From positions 2,784,001-2,848,000 of the forward strand of contig OZ251992.1 of the NCBI GenBank assembly GCA_965246885.1: a stretch of DNA of 64,000 nucleotides. Reading direction: 5' to 3'. Shown here piece after piece: positions 1 to 8,300 of the stretch (its first letter is position 1; every line of letters begins with the position of its first letter). Both the position numbers and the translations under genes were made by a program. Origin of the DNA: Abditibacterium sp. GTDB taxonomy: Bacteria; Armatimonadota; Abditibacteriia; Abditibacteriales; Abditibacteriaceae. The notes below the pieces were generated by a model, which saw only the letters and a list, made by a program, of their open reading frames with translations, ran no database searches and was not told the DNA's origin.

Positions 1-3000
1 GCGCCCGATAACGTAGTTGACGTTGTACTCGAACAAGGCGTGCGCTTTGGTGGCTTGGTCGAGGACGGGGTTGACTTCCTGCAACTTGGCTTCGGCCAAG
101 CGGCGGCGGCGTTCGGCGGGCAAGCGGAGCACGCGGTCAATGGTAGCCGTCAACGACTCGCCGCCCGCTTCGGCTTGCGCGCGTTGCGCCAAGACCGCTT
201 CCTCTTCCGTCAGAATGTCGGCTTGCAGGAGGGTTTCGAGGAAGTTTTCCGGGTCGGAGAAGGCGGGGTTGGCCGCTTCGCGCTCGGCGACGAGCGTGCC
301 CATGTCCGTCAGGGCAGCCGTGCGGCGCTTCTCGTCCTTTTCGGCGAGCCAGCCCAAGTTCTTGGCGACGCGCACCAGATACTGTTCGGGCGCCATCGTT
401 CCCGGCGGCGTCGCCGATACACTCACCTGCGCCAAACGGCGCAGGGCGCGCGCTAACTGATCCGCCGATTTGCCGACGAACTCGGACGGCGGCAGATTCT
501 TCGCCAAGTCCTTGGGCAGAATCAGGCGGCGCTTGATTTCTTCCGTAAAAGCGCGCGCGTTCTCCTCGGTCAGGAGCGGCTCCAAGTGCCGCGCGACGAC
601 ATCCGCCGCCAACACGCCGAAAATGGCGTGGTCGAGGGCACCCGACAACGGCTGGGCCAGTAGTTCGCCAAGGGCATCGTGCGCGTCGCCGGAGATTTCC
701 AGCGCCTTTTCGATTTGCGCGACCAGCCCCGCGTTCGACTCGCGCTTGAACTCGTTCCACGCCTTCCCGTAGTCGTCAATGGCCTTGGCGAGCGGGGCGA
801 TGGCGGGAGACGTAGTTAACTGCGCGCCGACGAAAGTGTCCAAGCCGCTCGCGCCAAATTCGCCGTCCTCGACCGCGCGCTGAATGGCAGCGCGGGCCTC
901 TTCAGGCAAGGGCACGAGGCCGTTTACTTTGTCGGCGAACGCGACCGATTGCTCCTGACGCCACGTTTGCAAGCGCGCGGCGCCGTCGGTTGCGATAGCG
1001 GACAGTTCGCCGCCATCTCCCGGCAAGTCGCGCACGACGGCGACCAAGCGGTCGGCAACGGCGTTCTGCCGTCCACCCTCGGCGAGTAAGGAAACGAAGA
1101 CTTTGTTCGCTTCGCGCGGCATTTCTTCGACCCACTGCGCCATTTCTTCGACCATGTGCGCGGCGATTTGCTCGTAAGTCTTACCCTGCTCGCGCTGAAG
1201 CGTCGCGGCGGCTTTGACGGCGAGCGCGAATTGGCCGGATTTGCCCAACTCCTTTTGCAAGGCGGCCTGCAACGTGGGCGCGTCCTCGCCTTGGAGGGCT
1301 AACTTGGCGACGACTTTATTGGGGCCGAGCGCACTTTCCAAGGTGCGGCTCTGCTCCGCCAAAAACGCAGTGCGGCTCGCGCTGTACTCTTTGGTCAGGG
1401 CAGAAATTTGCGTCGCCGCCTCGCCGCCTTGGGCCTCAATGGTCTTGACGACTTCGGCGCGCAATTGCTCACGGGAAAGCGGCAGTTTCGCGGTGTTCCA
1501 CAGCGTTTCTAACGACTCGAACGGCAAGAGCGCATTTTGCGTGAGCGTTTCCAACGCGGCGACCAGCTTACGGACGGAGGCGGCGTCTATACTCCCTCTC
1601 CCGCTCGCGGGAGAGGGGGACGGCGCGTTATCGCGCAGCACTTTGTCCGCCGCCGCGAGGTTGCCGCCTTGCTCCAAGCACGCGAGGACGAAGGCATCGT
1701 GTCCGCTTTGCAGGGCGCTCGCAACGGCTTCGACGGACTCGGAATCCACCAGTTCGCGGTTGCTCATCTCGTCGGCGATAAGGAGCGCGACGGTGCGGCC
1801 CTTGTCGTCGGAGTCAGAGATTTGCCCTTCCAAGTCAATAGCGGCGTCTTCGGGAAGCGTCAGGTCGTGCGCGAGGAGCGCGGCGTTGCTCCACTCGGAG
1901 TCTTGCGCGTTGAGCCACGCGGTCTCGAACGGCGCCAAGAGGCGCCCGATTTCTTCGCGCCACGCTTCGTGCAAGCGTCTGGCATCTACGGCTCCGAGGG
2001 CAAGCGCGTCCAAGTGGGCCTTGCCATCGGGGGAAATAAGTTTGTCGTTCGCCAGTTCGTCGCTCGCATCCAACAAGCGCGCGGCGTTGCTCAAACGGGC
2101 GCTTTCTTCCGATTGGAGATAGGCCGAGATGAGGTAGCCCATCGCTTGGGTGAAGGCGCCGCGCGCCAGAATCGCTTCGGTGAGGCCCGCGATGTCCACT
2201 TGCTTTTTGGTGGAGAAGCGCTCGATGAAGGTTTCGACTTCGCGGTCGGTGACGGCGGGCATGAGGACTTTCGCCACGCCGTCGCAGGTCTTGCTCATCC
2301 CTTGGCGGCGCAGGGCGCGGTCGGTTTTGGCGACTTGGGCGGAAATGATAAGCGGCGTGCGCGCTTCGTCAATGAGGATGTTGTCCACCTCGTCAATGAT
2401 GGCGAACGACAAAGGCTTTTGCACCATGTCGTCGGGCGAAGCGGCCATGTTGTCGCGCAAGTAATCGAAGCCAAATTCCGAGTTGGTGCCGTAGAGGATG
2501 TCGCAGGCGTAGCACTCTTGGCGCTCGGCGGCGTCCATATCGTTCTGCAAGAACGCGACACTCAGCCCCAGAAACTCATAAACGGGCCGCATCCAGTTGG
2601 CATCGCGCTCGGCGAGGTAGTCGTTGACCGTGACGACGTGAACGCCGCGCCCGGTCAGCGCGTTGAGATAGGCGGGAAGCGTGGCGACGAGCGTTTTGCC
2701 TTCGCCGGTGCGCATTTCGGCGATTTTGCCGCCGTGCAACACCATGCCGCCGATTAGCTGAACGTCGAAGTGGCGCAAGCCGATGGTGCGGTCGCCCGAT
2801 TCGCGGCACAGCGCGAAGGCTTCGGGAAGCAGCAGGTTCAGCACTTCCTTTTCGGCGGCGAGGCGGGCGCGCACGTACGCATCCGTCCACGAGAACTGGG
2901 TTTCCAGTTCCAGCCATTCCAAGCCCTGCTTTTGCAGGCGCTCGGTGACTTCGACGCCAAAGCGCTCGCGTAGCGCGAGGGAGCGGGCTTTGAGTTCTTC

Positions 3001-3183
3001 GTCGGACAGCGCCTTGATTTCGTCGGCGAGGGCGCCAATTTGCTCGACGATGGGGCGGAGTTTGGCGACCTCTTTCTCGTTTTTGTCGAAGAGTTTGGAA
3101 ACGACGCCTAAGACGCCCTCGGCTTCTTGGGACGAGCCGGAAATATCGGACTTAGAGCCGAACAGTTTTTGTAAGAGTGACAT
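1..3183 (-). CDS. secA: Preprotein translocase subunit SecA, 5' part (runs off window edge), with very large insertion in the PPXD
   Basis: Not in ORF track (no stop in window). Manual translation from ATG at 3183 is open for 1061 codons: [11 protein letters not shown]...[11 protein letters not shown]...[10 protein letters not shown]...[11 protein letters not shown]...[16 protein letters not shown]...[20 protein letters not shown]...[13 protein letters not shown]...[14 protein letters not shown]. Confidence 0.96.
1594..1617. repeat. REP-like palindrome inside secA CDS
   Basis: CCCTCTCCCGC-TC-GCGGGAGAGGG, perfect 11-bp arms; reads PSPASGRG in SecA frame. Confidence 0.7.
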
Positions 3184-3200
3184 GATGTAAGTGCAAACCA

Positions 3201-3288
3201 GAACACAGATAAACGCGGATGGGACACAGAGGAGCCGCAGATGAATAGTTGGATTTCATCTGCGTCAGTGGGCGTTTATCTGCGGTTC
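3201..3288. repeat. Nested inverted repeat in secA leader
   Basis: GAACACAGATAAACGC (3201-3216) pairs with GCGTTTATCTGCGGTTC (3272-3288); inner GCAGATGAA / TTCATCTGC pair. Confidence 0.75.
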
Positions 3289-3679
3289 AATTCAAACGAA
3301 CTTGGGTTTGCACGCCCGACAAGCGCGCGATGACCGTCGCGGACAACTCGTGTGTCCGACGCGCGCGAATGATTTGCGGGGTGGGAGGCGACGGGGAATC
3401 TGAAAACGCGCCCAGATGCGCCGTCGCCGTCGAAACCCAAAGCGGCGATGGGGAAGTGGTGGGGGGCGTTTCCGCGACTGTCGGGGAACCAAGGTGTGCC
3501 GTTTGCGGCGCGCTCGCTTCGGCGGAAAGGAGCAATAGCACCGACTCGACCGAGGGCGTTCCGGGCGCTGTTGCCCACTGCGCCACTGGCATCGCCCACA
3601 ACGCAAGCAACGCCGCGACGAAAAACAGCGAAGCGTCGGGGCGGCGGAGGCGGGCGAACTGGGCCAACAAGCGAAACAT
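3287..3679 (-). CDS. Small secreted/membrane protein upstream of secA (candidate leader / monitoring peptide)
   Basis: 130 aa from ATG 3679; basic N-terminus, hydrophobic LFFVAALLALWAMPVA, P/S/T-rich linker; same strand, 103 nt before secA. Confidence 0.55.
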   Translation of the reverse strand: MFRLLAQFARLRRPDASLFFVAALLALWAMPVAQWATAPGTPSVESVLLLLSAEASAPQTAHLGSPTVAETPPTTSPSPLWVSTATAHLGAFSDSPSPPTPQIIRARRTHELSATVIARLSGVQTQVRLN

Positions 3680-3935: not shown

Positions 3936-4742
3936 ATGAGCAATCCTTATCAATGGAACGAAAACGAAGTCAAACAATTGGGCACCGGCGTGTGGATGCG
4001 CGTCGCGGTAGACAACATCGCGTGGTATGACTTGGGGCGCGGCGCCGCCGTCATAGACGCGCTCGAAGAGGCCGACCAAGCCGACGTGGTGCGCGGCCTC
4101 ATCAGGCAGACGACCGGGCAAGACCTGAAATATGTCGTCACGACGCACTGGGACACCGACCACATCGCGTGCAATCCGCAGTGGCGGCGCGAGGGCGCCC
4201 CCGTTATTGCCCACCAAAGCTGCGCGGATTCGGCAGGCGATTGGGAAGGCAAACCCGACATCGTCTATCCCGACATCTTGACGCTACGCGGCGAAGAAGA
4301 CCGCGACATTCATATGCGCTGGGTCGGCGGAACGCACACGGAGTGGGACACCATCCTCTACTTCCCCGCCGCGCGCACCCTGCATATCGCCGACTTGTTC
4401 GGGTGGGGCCTGATTCCTTGTAAGCCGACCCCCGAAAAGATCGAGCGGCTGCGCGAAATCCTGCTCATCATCCAATCGTATGAGGCCGATCACGTCATTT
4501 GCGGGCACGGCCCCTCCACCGATTTGGCGTGCATTCTCCGCTTTCAATCGTATCTCGAACAGATGCTCGCGCAAGTCCCGCTTCTGATTAGCGCGGGCAA
4601 GACCGACGAGGAAATCGCCCAACTCGTTCCACCGCCCGCCGATATGAGCGAGTGGTTCCGCTTCGTCGCGTGGAAGCACGCCAAGAACATTGCGCTTATC
4701 CGCGAGCATTATCACGGCGCCGCGCTGCATTTGGGAACGTAA
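3936..4742 (+). CDS. MBL-fold metallo-hydrolase
   Basis: VVTTHWDTDH motif, GGTHT, HIADLF, VICGHG. Confidence 0.85.
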   Translation: MSNPYQWNENEVKQLGTGVWMRVAVDNIAWYDLGRGAAVIDALEEADQADVVRGLIRQTTGQDLKYVVTTHWDTDHIACNPQWRREGAPVIAHQSCADSAGDWEGKPDIVYPDILTLRGEEDRDIHMRWVGGTHTEWDTILYFPAARTLHIADLFGWGLIPCKPTPEKIERLREILLIIQSYEADHVICGHGPSTDLACILRFQSYLEQMLAQVPLLISAGKTDEEIAQLVPPPADMSEWFRFVAWKHAKNIALIREHYHGAALHLGT

Positions 4743-5999
4743 TCAGCCCTTCATCAGCGCGAGCGATGCGAACGAGACGACGATGTTTTGGTCGGGGTGG
4801 TAGGCTTGGTCGTAGTCTAAGAAGACGCCGCGCAGAGCGGGGAACGCGGCCATGAGGGTATACACGGCGGGGTGGGCGTCCACGTGGAAGCGGTTGAAGT
4901 CGCGGGCGAAGTGGGCGTGAAAGGCGGCGCGGTCACCGCGTTCGAGAGCGCCCATCCACTCGCGGTCAGCGTTTTGGATGTCTCCCAGAGTCTTGGCCGT
5001 GAGAGGCGTCGCATCGCCGAACTGCGTGCCGACGTGCGCGCCGTCCACCGACGCGATGAAGCCGACTTTCTTGCCTTGCCCTTCCCACTGCGCGACGGCG
5101 CCGCGCAAGGCGAGGACGAAGCGGGCGACTTCCGGCTCGGCCTCTTCGGGCGCGCGCTTCGTTTTCAGGGCATCCCAAAAGCCACCGACGGCAAAGGGAG
5201 CGATTTTGGCCGACGCCAACGAGGGGTGGAAGCCGAGCAGGACGGCGGCAAATTCAAGCGAGTGTTCGTCGCCATGCACCCAACTCTCCGCGAAGAGGTC
5301 GTCTTCGGGCGGGAGTTGTTCCGCAATGGCATGGAGGAAAGCGCGGTCGGTTTCGACAACGCCAAAGGGCGTCCCGAAGTCCTGCTTAGTGGCCGCGAAG
5401 GGGTAGGACACGCCTTTGTGGGCGATGCCCAAGACGACGAACAAATCGAAGGGTTTTCCGGTCGCTTCGACGTTCTTAACGAGGGGGATGTAGGACGCCG
5501 CTTCGGTGTGTCCGCCCCGGTGAAAGTCAATGTGGGGCGTGACGATGCCGACCACGCGCGACGCGTCGAGGGTGACGGCGGGCAAGCGTTTGGCGCCGTC
5601 GCGCAGTTTGTCGTTGAGGAAGGCGCGTAGTTCCCCGGCTTCGGCGGGATAGGAGCGTCCCGCGAAACGCGCGCGGCGCACGCCGCCTTCATCCTCGCCC
5701 TCCCCTGCCGCTTGGGAGCGAAAGCGCGGCGAGTCGAGAAACAGCAAAGTGTCGAGTTGTTCGACGAACGAATGGGCGAAGTCGCGCCCATCGTCAACGC
5801 CGCGCTCTCGCAGCCATCCGGCTAAGTCGCGGAGCGAGCGGGAGCCGTCGAGAAGCGCGAGAAAGGCGCCGTACTCCGGCTCCATCGCCACTTCCGGCGC
5901 AAAGCCGCGCGGGTCGGAGAGATGGAGCTTGGGGCCACCGTCGCCTGCGATGACCTCGGCGCGAAGCGCGCGCAGTTTGGGGCGGAAGTCGTCGTTCAT
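4743..5999 (-). CDS. MEMO1-family protein (AmmeMemoRadiSam protein B-like) with N-terminal extension
   Basis: RRARFAGRSYP, VTPHIDFHRGG, LGIAH, HGDEHSLE, ASVDGAHVG motifs. Confidence 0.85.
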   Translation of the reverse strand: MNDDFRPKLRALRAEVIAGDGGPKLHLSDPRGFAPEVAMEPEYGAFLALLDGSRSLRDLAGWLRERGVDDGRDFAHSFVEQLDTLLFLDSPRFRSQAAGEGEDEGGVRRARFAGRSYPAEAGELRAFLNDKLRDGAKRLPAVTLDASRVVGIVTPHIDFHRGGHTEAASYIPLVKNVEATGKPFDLFVVLGIAHKGVSYPFAATKQDFGTPFGVVETDRAFLHAIAEQLPPEDDLFAESWVHGDEHSLEFAAVLLGFHPSLASAKIAPFAVGGFWDALKTKRAPEEAEPEVARFVLALRGAVAQWEGQGKKVGFIASVDGAHVGTQFGDATPLTAKTLGDIQNADREWMGALERGDRAAFHAHFARDFNRFHVDAHPAVYTLMAAFPALRGVFLDYDQAYHPDQNIVVSFASLALMKG

Positions 6000-6062: not shown

Positions 6063-6656
6063 TTATTCGCCGCGCTTTTCTTTGTGCAGGATGTGGTCAA
6101 CCATGCCGTAGGCTCTGGCTTGTTCGGCGCCCATCCACTTGTCGCGCTCGGAGTCGGCGAGCACGGTTTCAAGCGGCTGGCCGGTGTGCGAAGCGATGAT
6201 CTTGGCGAGGGTGTCCTTGAGGGTCAGCATCTCGCGCAGGGTGATTTCCGCGTCCGTCGCTTGGCCCTCGAAGCCGCCCGATGGCTGGTGAATCATCACG
6301 CGCGCGTTGGGCGTGATGTAGCGCTTGCCGGGAGCGCCCGCGCACAAAAGCAGCGCGCCATAGGACGCCGCCATGCCGGTGCAGATGGTGGCGATGGGGC
6401 ACCGCACGGTCTGCATCGTGTCGTAGATGGCGTTGCCCGCATACACGGAGCCGCCGGGCGAGTTGATGTAAATGTCTATCTCGCGTTCGGGGTCTTGCTT
6501 TTCAAGCCAGAGCAACTGCGCTTGAACGACGGTGGCGAGGGCGTCGGTCACTGGCTCGTGAATGAAGATGATGCGCTCTTCCAAAAGGCGCGAGAATAGG
6601 TCGTAGCCGCGCTCACCGCGCGCGGTCTGTTCGATGATGGATGGAACGAGTGGCAT
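6063..6656 (-). CDS. clpP: ATP-dependent Clp protease proteolytic subunit
   Basis: [36 protein letters not shown]. Confidence 0.96.
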
Positions 6657-6785
6657 TGTGGTTAAACAAAACGCCGCGCTTGGTCGAACGACGGCGGGCG
6701 CGGCGGTTTATGCACTTCTGGACTATTAGGTTGGGGGCGCGGTTCCGGCTTCGGAGGAAGCGCCCCCGTTCGTCTTACTCGCGAC

Positions 6786-8300
6786 CTACGCCAGCGTCAG
6801 CCCCGGCGCGTGGCCTTCTTCTTCGGCGTCGCCGCCTTCGGCCATGACCAGTTCGCCGTCCTCGTCTAACTCGCCGAGCATGGCTTCTTGAGCGAGGGCT
6901 TCCTCGATGACTTCTTCGTTCTCGTCGTCCAAGGAGTTGGCCGCCATTTGGACGGGCTGACCCGCTTCGTCGGTGATGACGGCGTGTTCGGTCAGGAAAT
7001 CAATGGCTTTGCGCTGGAGAATGCTCGTCACGACGGACTGGTAGGGCACCTGCTTGACAAGTTCTTCGGGCGGCGTTTGGCTCATCTGCGCCATCATCAT
7101 GTAGTGGTTGCCCACTTCGTCCTCGGAAACGGGGAACTTTTGGCCGCGCGCAATTTCGTCCAACACCAGTTCCGTTTTCAGTTCGTTCTCGATTTCCTCG
7201 CGCAGGTCGGCTTCCAACTGCTCTTGCGTGGAGTTGATGGCTTGCAAGTAGGCTTCGATGGTCGCGCCGTTCTGGGAGAGTTCCTGTTGGATGCCCGCCA
7301 CGCGGTCGGTCACGCGAGCGCTCACAAGCGCGCTGGGGACTTCGACGACCGACTTGTCCACGACCTGCTTGACGACTTCTTCGCGGGCTTCTTTGCGCGA
7401 CTCGCGCTCGCCGACTTGGGCGAGGTAGTCGCGCAGCTTGGTGTGAAGGTCAGCGACGTTCTCGGCGCCCGAAATTTGCGCGAACTCGTCGGTCACTTCG
7501 GGGATGACGCGCTCCTTGATGGCGGTGACTTTGACCTCGAACTCGGCGCTTTTGCCCGCCAGTTCGGGGTCGGGAAAGTCTTCCGGGTAGGCCTGCGTGA
7601 AGCGGCGCGTTTCGTCCAACTTTTGGCCGACCAGTTGGTCGTCAATGGCGGGCACGAAGCCGGACTCGCCCAAAACGAAGCCGCGCAGTTTGGCGGGTTC
7701 CTCGGAGCGCGGCTGGCCGTCCACGAAGACCTGCACGTCGGCGAAAATCACGTCGCTCATTTGCGCGCTCACTTCGCCACTGCCGCCTTCGTCCTCTTCT
7801 TTCTTGTTCTTGAGATAGGCGCGCTCCTCTTGCATTTGCGACAGAGCCTGTTGCACGTCTTCGTCGCTGATGTTGACGGTGCGCTTGGTGGCGCTCAGGC
7901 CTTCGGTGGAGCCGACGGTGATGTCGGGGCGCACGACCACGCGCGCGACGAAGGTGAAGGGCTTGTCGCCGTCGAAAGCGTCGAAGGAAAGTTCGTCCAC
8001 TTGAGCTTGGTCGAGGGGCACGACGCCCGCTTGCTGCACGGCGGCTTGGTAGGCGGCGGGCACGAGTTGGTCAGAGACCTCTTGGGAAATCGCCTCGTCG
8101 CCCACGTTGCGGCGCACGATGCCAGCCGGGATGGAGCCGGGGCGGAATCCGGGGATGCGGATGCGCTTGGAGAACTCTTTGATCGCGCGGTTGCGCGCGT
8201 CTTGCACTGCCGCAGGTGCGACTTCGATATGGAGCGACACGAGGCCGCCGTCCTGTTTTTCGACCGAGAGGTTGGAAAGTTGAATGCCGTTAGGTTGCAC
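6786..8300 (-). CDS. tig: Trigger factor
   Basis: IPGFRPGSIP ribosome-binding motif, FKBP-like domain (YPEDF...LAGKSAEFEVKV), directly upstream of clpP; TTG start uncertain. Confidence 0.93.
   Translation of the reverse strand: MQPNGIQLSNLSVEKQDGGLVSLHIEVAPAAVQDARNRAIKEFSKRIRIPGFRPGSIPAGIVRRNVGDEAISQEVSDQLVPAAYQAAVQQAGVVPLDQAQVDELSFDAFDGDKPFTFVARVVVRPDITVGSTEGLSATKRTVNISDEDVQQALSQMQEERAYLKNKKEEDEGGSGEVSAQMSDVIFADVQVFVDGQPRSEEPAKLRGFVLGESGFVPAIDDQLVGQKLDETRRFTQAYPEDFPDPELAGKSAEFEVKVTAIKERVIPEVTDEFAQISGAENVADLHTKLRDYLAQVGERESRKEAREEVVKQVVDKSVVEVPSALVSARVTDRVAGIQQELSQNGATIEAYLQAINSTQEQLEADLREEIENELKTELVLDEIARGQKFPVSEDEVGNHYMMMAQMSQTPPEELVKQVPYQSVVTSILQRKAIDFLTEHAVITDEAGQPVQMAANSLDDENEEVIEEALAQEAMLGELDEDGELVMAEGGDAEEEGHAPGLTLA

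Follow-up and report, generated by a model that had tools for sequence, protein, structure and literature searches.

A giant, apparently self-duplicated SecA and an altered SecY in the class Abditibacteria

SecA and SecY are among the most conserved bacterial machines, and how docking of the SecA PPXD on loop 8/9 of SecY activates the motor and the channel is still debated. Housekeeping SecAs, for instance those of B. subtilis (1m6n, 3jv2), E. coli (2fsf) and T. thermophilus (2ipc), are roughly 800–1,000 aa long. The accessible text of the papers concerned delimits their domains (PMC8082313, PMC6620043), assigns roles to the clamp arginines and the finger tyrosine (PMC9926265, PMC6599042), and has the PPXD move between the wing domain and NBD2 and dock on loop 8/9 (PMC5963308, PMC9926265; for the docking also PMC6599042). 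Lineage-specific surface inserts are known as well: the published ones that we found, signature inserts of thermophile SecAs, measure 50 and 76 aa and lie in the ATPase domain (accessible text of PMC7023208).

In SecY, the arginine of the RPG site (E. coli R357) has been called completely conserved in all three domains of life (PMC4826270). It is essential for starting post-translational translocation, is also important in ribosome binding and serves FtsY binding, and one structure has no extensive SecA contact there (PMC3101351); the R357E change was interpreted as disrupting an allosteric path (PMC6021171), all as stated in the accessible parts of these papers. Finally, arrest peptides of the SecM, ApdA, ApdP and RQH types, as described in the accessible text of PMC10987492, are encoded by short ORFs directly ahead of secA and have a hydrophobic N-terminus, a spacer of >30 aa and a conserved C-terminus.

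The window studied here, a 64,000-nt stretch of an Abditibacterium genome (class Abditibacteria, placed by GTDB in Armatimonadota; accessible supplement of PMC10987492), opens inside a secA gene (Table 1). The earlier note had read this frame as open from nt 3183 to the window edge, with a giant in-frame PPXD insertion of ~640 aa, and both readings hold. The frame has 1,061 codons in the window, with [10 protein letters not shown] at residue 272, KAHALF at 1046 and, where a PPXD-like segment had been seen to resume near nt 340, DEKRRTAAL at 950 (nt ~336); the insertion is ~635 aa long. The landmark spacing of 80–90 residues quoted for ordinary SecA is a little too large, as it is ~70 in B. subtilis (3jv2 alignment). 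The extra sequence was rightly placed in the PPXD loop but is not a single piece: a second, smaller one brings the total to ~690 residues. The whole gene is also larger than the window showed. Followed past the window edge, it encodes 2,250 aa, over double the usual length; two large inserted parts account for this, the one in the PPXD and another of ~535 residues at the VAR site. Compared with the thermophile inserts in the accessible text of PMC7023208, those of the class are about ten times larger, and one lies in the PPXD.

Table 1. Features of the secA locus (positions in the window unless stated otherwise; aa, amino acids)
Feature	Position	Strand	Remarks
secA, 5' half, residues 1-1061 of 2,250	1..3183	-	gene runs beyond the window to G000:C1:2780431 (3' end)
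NBD1, N-terminal part, Walker A GEGKT at 160, DEVD at 264	2311..3096	-	SecA_DEAD E 3.9e-99
First helix of the PPXD bulb, residues 282-309, ahead of the insert	2257..2340	-	side by side with ordinary PPXDs; helix in the model
Giant PPXD insert, ~635 aa, residues ~310-944	352..2256	-	all-helical, acidic (net -31), no transmembrane stretch, no known family
Four degenerate ~70-aa units, residues 553-830	694..1527	-	each two short helices and one ~32-residue helix
Last module of the insert, residues ~860-926, weakly like the helical wing domain of SecA	406..606	-	HHalign
PPXD beta-hairpin resumption, [19 protein letters not shown], residues 945-977	253..351	-	ordinary-PPXD profile 96%; two strands in the model
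Small second PPXD insert, ~55 aa, residues ~978-1033	85..252	-	possible MshEN-like four-helix bundle, strongly conserved, RRRR near-invariant
PPXD C-terminal helix, [21 protein letters not shown]	1..84	-	C-loop and PP-loop arginines R1078, R1083 just outside the window
~90-aa NBD2 insert, phylum-wide, residues ~1207-1296	outside the window	-	comparison of class and outgroup loci
~535-aa NBD2 insert, class-specific, residues 1345-1880	C1:2781544-2783151 (L001:11544-13151), outside the window	-	starts as a degenerate tandem copy of the N-half of NBD2
Upstream ORF, 136 aa	3287..3697	-	hydrophobic signal-like N-terminus, variable spacer, conserved C-terminal motif
Stable RNA hairpin, end of upstream ORF to start of secA	3191..3313	-	-53.6 kcal/mol, z -5.3 for 3170-3330

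Comparison with SecA HMMs upholds the identity of the protein. Pfam SecA_DEAD and P-loop_SecA are above cut-off, and a search of the whole protein finds the wing/scaffold (SecA_SW, E 7.6e-56). It is the only tblastn and SecA_DEAD match in its genome, with no second, ordinary secA. The same holds across the class: each of the 31 genomes has one strong SecA NBD1 match, and with a single secA and a single secY match per genome no paralogue of the SecA2/SecY2 type was found. Of 54 giant SecAs, 52–54 retain the Walker A and B motifs, motifs III–VI, the clamp arginines and the finger tyrosine; for the motifs of the two NBDs the count is 53–54 at each position, and those of the N-terminal NBD1 part (GEGKT and DEVD) do not vary in any of the 54. 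In particular, the clamp arginines R1078 and R1083 are kept (B. subtilis R322 and R327; numbering from the 3jv2 alignment), and the two-helix-finger tyrosine Y2141 (Y743) is found in 53 of the 54, the remaining one being truncated. By these residues, the giant protein is the ordinary housekeeping SecA of the class, with the catalytic, clamp and two-helix-finger residues all kept. Nine core positions fixed in 28 ordinary SecAs are altered in 23 giants; six lie in or at the start of the PPXD (A282, L291, D301, N1054, E1091 and H1097), and a seventh, N268, flanks DEVD. The SecA of our genome differs from some other giant members in having no SEC-C motif.

The stretch from DEARTP to the VDxxTGR loop spans ~800 residues here, 779–843 in the 21 other class loci and 100–119 in the 7 of 12 outgroup loci that allowed the measurement; over all orders of the class the PPXD span is 779–845. 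The structure model of the larger PPXD insert is confident (pLDDT ~90) and all-helical, in line with the helical, non-intein character first ascribed to it. Domain, profile and fold searches yielded no known domain or mobile element. Protein searches gave 35 and 15 matches, all of them giant SecAs or apparent fragments of these, and among 1.84 billion representatives there were no free-standing relatives. The insert does not consist of copies of the PPXD bulb. Within it, the model sets the long helices of the repeat units 62, 74 and 72 residues apart. HHalign pairs the units at 79% (U3/U4), 53% (U1/U3), 52% (U1/U4) and 28% (U2/U4), and in shuffle controls on five pairs four beat the shuffled maximum, while U4/U5 does not. 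The last module has a likeness to the wing domain that is weak and varies with the profile: 65.6% (P 5.8e-5) against a 65-sequence wing/scaffold profile, 26–40% with 9 sequences (score 26.5 vs a shuffled maximum of 17.7) and nothing with two, while Pfam SecA_SW gave no match in 8/8 members. Possibly the module arose as a copy of that domain.

The small second PPXD insert has the 24-residue spacing to a terminal Gln that is seen in the MshEN domain (5htl; accessible text of PMC5013675), the Gln being conserved here as Q1003 in 46 of 54 proteins, and it may form the same kind of four-helix bundle. It differs in lacking RLG and both glycines, and the profile match is weak. A relaxed form of the c-di-GMP motif given in the accessible text of PMC5013675, RLGxxLLxxGLIxxxxLxxxLxxQ, was found in 0/54 giant SecAs. 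The genus also has PilB-type ATPases (L095, L088-L100), and their MshEN domains likewise have no RLG motif.

The second giant insert fills the VAR slot of NBD2, between GRGxD and GGLHIIG, which in E. coli holds the VAR subdomain. Here the slot is occupied by a duplicated half of NBD2 together with ~350 aa of new alpha/beta modules. Going by the title of a 2012 article by Das et al., VAR reportedly regulates ATPase activity and ADP release. The first ~150 residues of the insert copy residues ~1170–1300 (HHalign 95–97%, P 7.7e-10) with matching secondary structure, and its end copies the motif V strand, where Pfam's best P-loop_SecA stretch begins. The profile of the insert also matches the first copy within the same genes and, over positions 1–153 only, frames in 49 of 370 other genomes, mostly of ~930–1,230 aa, which are taken to be ordinary SecAs. 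Motif V of the copy reads ETGVAGQSAD (E, G, V, G, Q and D in 54/54), with GQS in place of GRG; motif VI is missing, and the whole protein has a sole GRAGRQG. With Q for the motif V arginine and without motif VI, the copy cannot be catalytic. By homology, NBD2 has thus gained a second version of its N-half that is catalytically dead. The smaller NBD2 insert of ~90 aa is located where T. thermophilus also has one.

The PPXD insert was found in the 30/30 other genomes of the class, and both inserts are present in all 31. Outside the class, 1 of 370 other phylum genomes gave a match to the PPXD insert, a weak one (E 4.8e-4). Among Armatimonadota SecAs, 26 giant ones group by their cores into a single clade (SH-aLRT 100; a quick tree of 45 rows, P0108 left out), with a long stem of 0.45 changes per column. 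In 12 pairs, dN/dS was 0.11–0.31 for the inserts vs 0.016–0.087 for the core, so that the inserts are under purifying selection and evolve faster than the core. We rejected an assembly artefact given the flat GC3 along the gene (0.72–0.86), the contigs of run X2 that span both junctions of the big insert with no chimeric join, and the recurrence of the insert across the class. Depth over the insert is ~13–44 in X1 and X2, two runs of a single study that possibly includes the source sample; the sides of the five low-depth joints listed are just 20–22 letters long. Several class secA loci end at contig edges. In G023 the gene lies in several frameshifted pieces (G023:C12:520065-525594), probably through sequencing errors, and G250 has a second, partial NBD2-region copy of the giant secA on another contig (G250:C549:155-1663), likely contamination or a strain mix.

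Other large SecAs exist. Among the best 120 of 6,867 SecA-like proteins of at least 1,237 aa, the matches listed include P0111, with a PPXD span of 552 vs 101 residues (an insert of ~450 aa), and P0108, P0123 and P0080, with ~400–450 aa at the VAR site. None of the four scores with either insert profile, and P0111 shows no similarity to the class PPXD insert (HHalign 0.1%). As several unrelated SecAs among those listed have large inserts at the same slots, such inserts appear to be recurring and apparently undescribed; the literature yielded no description of the SecA of this clade or of such large inserts. What is distinctive of the class is that both slots are filled and that SecY is changed. 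P0087 and P0125 are also unrelated SecAs with independent inserts of ~450 aa in the PPXD or ~400–450 aa at the VAR site. P0079, P0083, P0104, P0114, P0118 and P0124 have very long C-terminal parts, and in P0078 (1,562 aa) the long C-terminal part has precomputed PF20154 and PF00795 matches and is possibly a fusion to an Lnt-type enzyme.

The RPG arginine, part of the loop 8/9 on which the PPXD docks, is missing from SecY throughout the class: among 30 genomes (28 and two more; G021 gave no SecY match), 27 have A and three have S at this position, vs R in 30/30 genomes from other classes. The site reads IQGYAPG in the class and IPGIRPG in the others, and the sole SecY of our genome (G000:C1:2089741-2091078, + strand, locus L071) has A356 there. 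Among 45 SecY columns invariant in 30 outgroups, three are changed in most of the class, with the RPG site as the sole radical change. However, the SecA and SecY changes are each one event on one long branch, and therefore their co-occurrence is a single observation: a striking coincidence, not statistical proof, and it may be coincidence indeed. Moreover, as the residue takes part in ribosome and FtsY binding too, and one structure has it without extensive contact to SecA, the ribosome rather than SecA may be behind its loss. The genome also encodes a diverged SecG (G000:C1:3249454-3249798, + strand), which the Pfam search missed and the sequence of a relative found (50% identity).

The upstream ORF stops 103 nt ahead of secA. 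Its relatives occupy the same place in 21 of 23 Abditibacteriaceae genomes with upstream DNA, G014 and G018 being the exceptions, and in 0/4 class genomes outside the family. In 20 of the 21, a hydrophobic stretch (12-residue mean 2.1–3.5) lies 114–178 aa ahead of the stop; the G023 copy is broken. The C-terminal motif is H-x-A-x-x-L-S-G-[VTI]-R-T-N-like (SGxRTN-like), and the pattern, derived from these same sequences, matches 1 of 12,674 ORF ends of our genome. No Pfam family was found for the ORF. Its position directly upstream of secA, hydrophobic N-terminus, spacer of >30 aa and conserved C-terminus are the traits by which arrest peptides were sought in PMC10987492, according to its accessible text. 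In contrast to the types named there, it has no proline-rich motif, and the SGxRTN-like motif falls outside the named set; no RAPP/RAGP-like or other described arrest motif was found in the class ORFs, and candidate file 9 of that paper, as far as accessible, showed no row for Abditibacteria. The ORF looks like a candidate SecM-type arrest peptide with a new C-terminal motif, which, judging from its anatomy, would probably stall ribosomes and tune secA expression to export load. In the outgroup, upstream ORFs ahead of secA at L059 (G039) and L061 (G034) end in RAPP, a known type of arrest motif. Further upstream, 3–5 kb from secA, lie the trigger factor gene and a ClpP-like gene (6063–8300, - strand), with a Memo-like protein (4743–5999) and a metallo-beta-lactamase-fold protein (3936–4742) in between; the trigger factor (nt 6786–8300, - strand) is a normal one of 504 aa with a long acidic tail.

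We propose that SecA grew on the stem branch of the class, through internal duplication and through accretion at surface sites that tolerate additions, and that it would still be an ATP-driven clamp motor on SecYEG. The PPXD would have gained a long arm of helical repeats, and the inserts would provide new contacts through which the clamp is positioned or pre-set and is docked on the channel. With such contacts the SecY arginine would no longer be needed and may have been lost together with several otherwise fixed PPXD residues. The anatomy of this self-duplicated SecA is observed directly; a rebuilt SecY-docking and activation step is the mechanism we would infer from it, and we consider this reading a real possibility, if short of an even chance.

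Alternatively, the arm may be a built-in holdase that captures unfolded preproteins and passes them on to the clamp, replacing a SecB-type chaperone. It sits on the substrate clamp, is modular and is acidic in 54/54 proteins (-4 to -8 per 100 aa); SecB was not found in the genome, many of whose longest ORFs, up to 3,112 aa, start signal-like by eye. However, just 4 of 151 phylum genomes have SecB, and as the 147 without it belong mostly to classes with SecA of ordinary length, its absence explains nothing. In addition, a normal trigger factor gene is nearby, the fold searches brought up no conspicuous chaperone fold, and the SecY change and the NBD2 copy are left without explanation, which makes a holdase rather unlikely. 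Of the undescribed accessory part, possibly a chaperone, that the earlier note had seen in the PPXD of this essential protein, the former thus stands and the latter so far does not.

We also think it unlikely that the inserts are mere entrenched accretion, that is, duplications at tolerant loops that formed stable bodies and were kept mainly as partial deletions misfold an essential protein, with an independent SecY change. The internal repeats and the self-duplication fit this, as does the slower evolution of the core, and one family (G025, P0071, P0073 and P0074) is without ~120–140 aa of the NBD2 insert. Moreover, the unrelated big inserts at the same sites in unrelated SecAs imply that these sites tolerate additions, so that no special role is needed. 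Against it, the length and order of the modules are constant across all class orders, none of the 31 genomes has a clean excision of an insert, and the invariant polar residues of RRRR, ETGVAGQSAD and RHLEPLL suggest a function beyond packing.

That the inserts serve as a platform for another partner or signal, and regulate SecA by binding a nucleotide, the ribosome or a membrane protein specific to the class, is improbable. The conserved Gln and arginine patch of the MshEN-like bundle and the repeated W-x-x-x-x-L helices in the mixed alpha/beta modules of the NBD2 insert would suit such a role, and the arginine lost from SecY contacts the ribosome as well (accessible text of PMC3101351), but the RLG and glycine positions required for c-di-GMP are missing, both giant inserts are net acidic, which is unfavourable for RNA or lipid binding, and no partner gene is evident beside secA. 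An intein, a mobile element or an assembly chimera, for which only the size and the in-frame position speak, can practically be dismissed: the model is all-helical while the Hint fold is beta-rich, no intein family was found for the insert itself, among the 25 families listed for 23 members or in the whole protein, free-standing relatives are lacking, and the insert is vertical, class-wide and under selection, with bridged junctions.

If the proposed rebuilding of the docking and activation step is correct, the class offers a natural experiment on how SecA activates SecY: the motor chemistry is kept, the one SecY has lost a 'universal' arginine, and the two jaws of the clamp are larger by ~1,230 residues, which opens the way to direct swap experiments. 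The inserts are predicted to comprise ~1,000 residues of confidently folded protein for which no match was found, and they would clearly exemplify how new domains arise through self-duplication within an essential enzyme. They can also be used as a class-level marker, and the upstream ORF supplies a new candidate ribosome-stalling motif. In the wider picture, which we hold only tentatively and as less than probable, the class would run its essential Sec pathway on a rebuilt motor–channel pair, with a spare NBD2 half and a wing-like module of SecA setting the clamp, a housekeeping SecY that lacks this arginine, and an arrest peptide whose stalling motif is new. Taken together, the giant SecA and the altered SecY suggest that the export machine is activated differently in this lineage.
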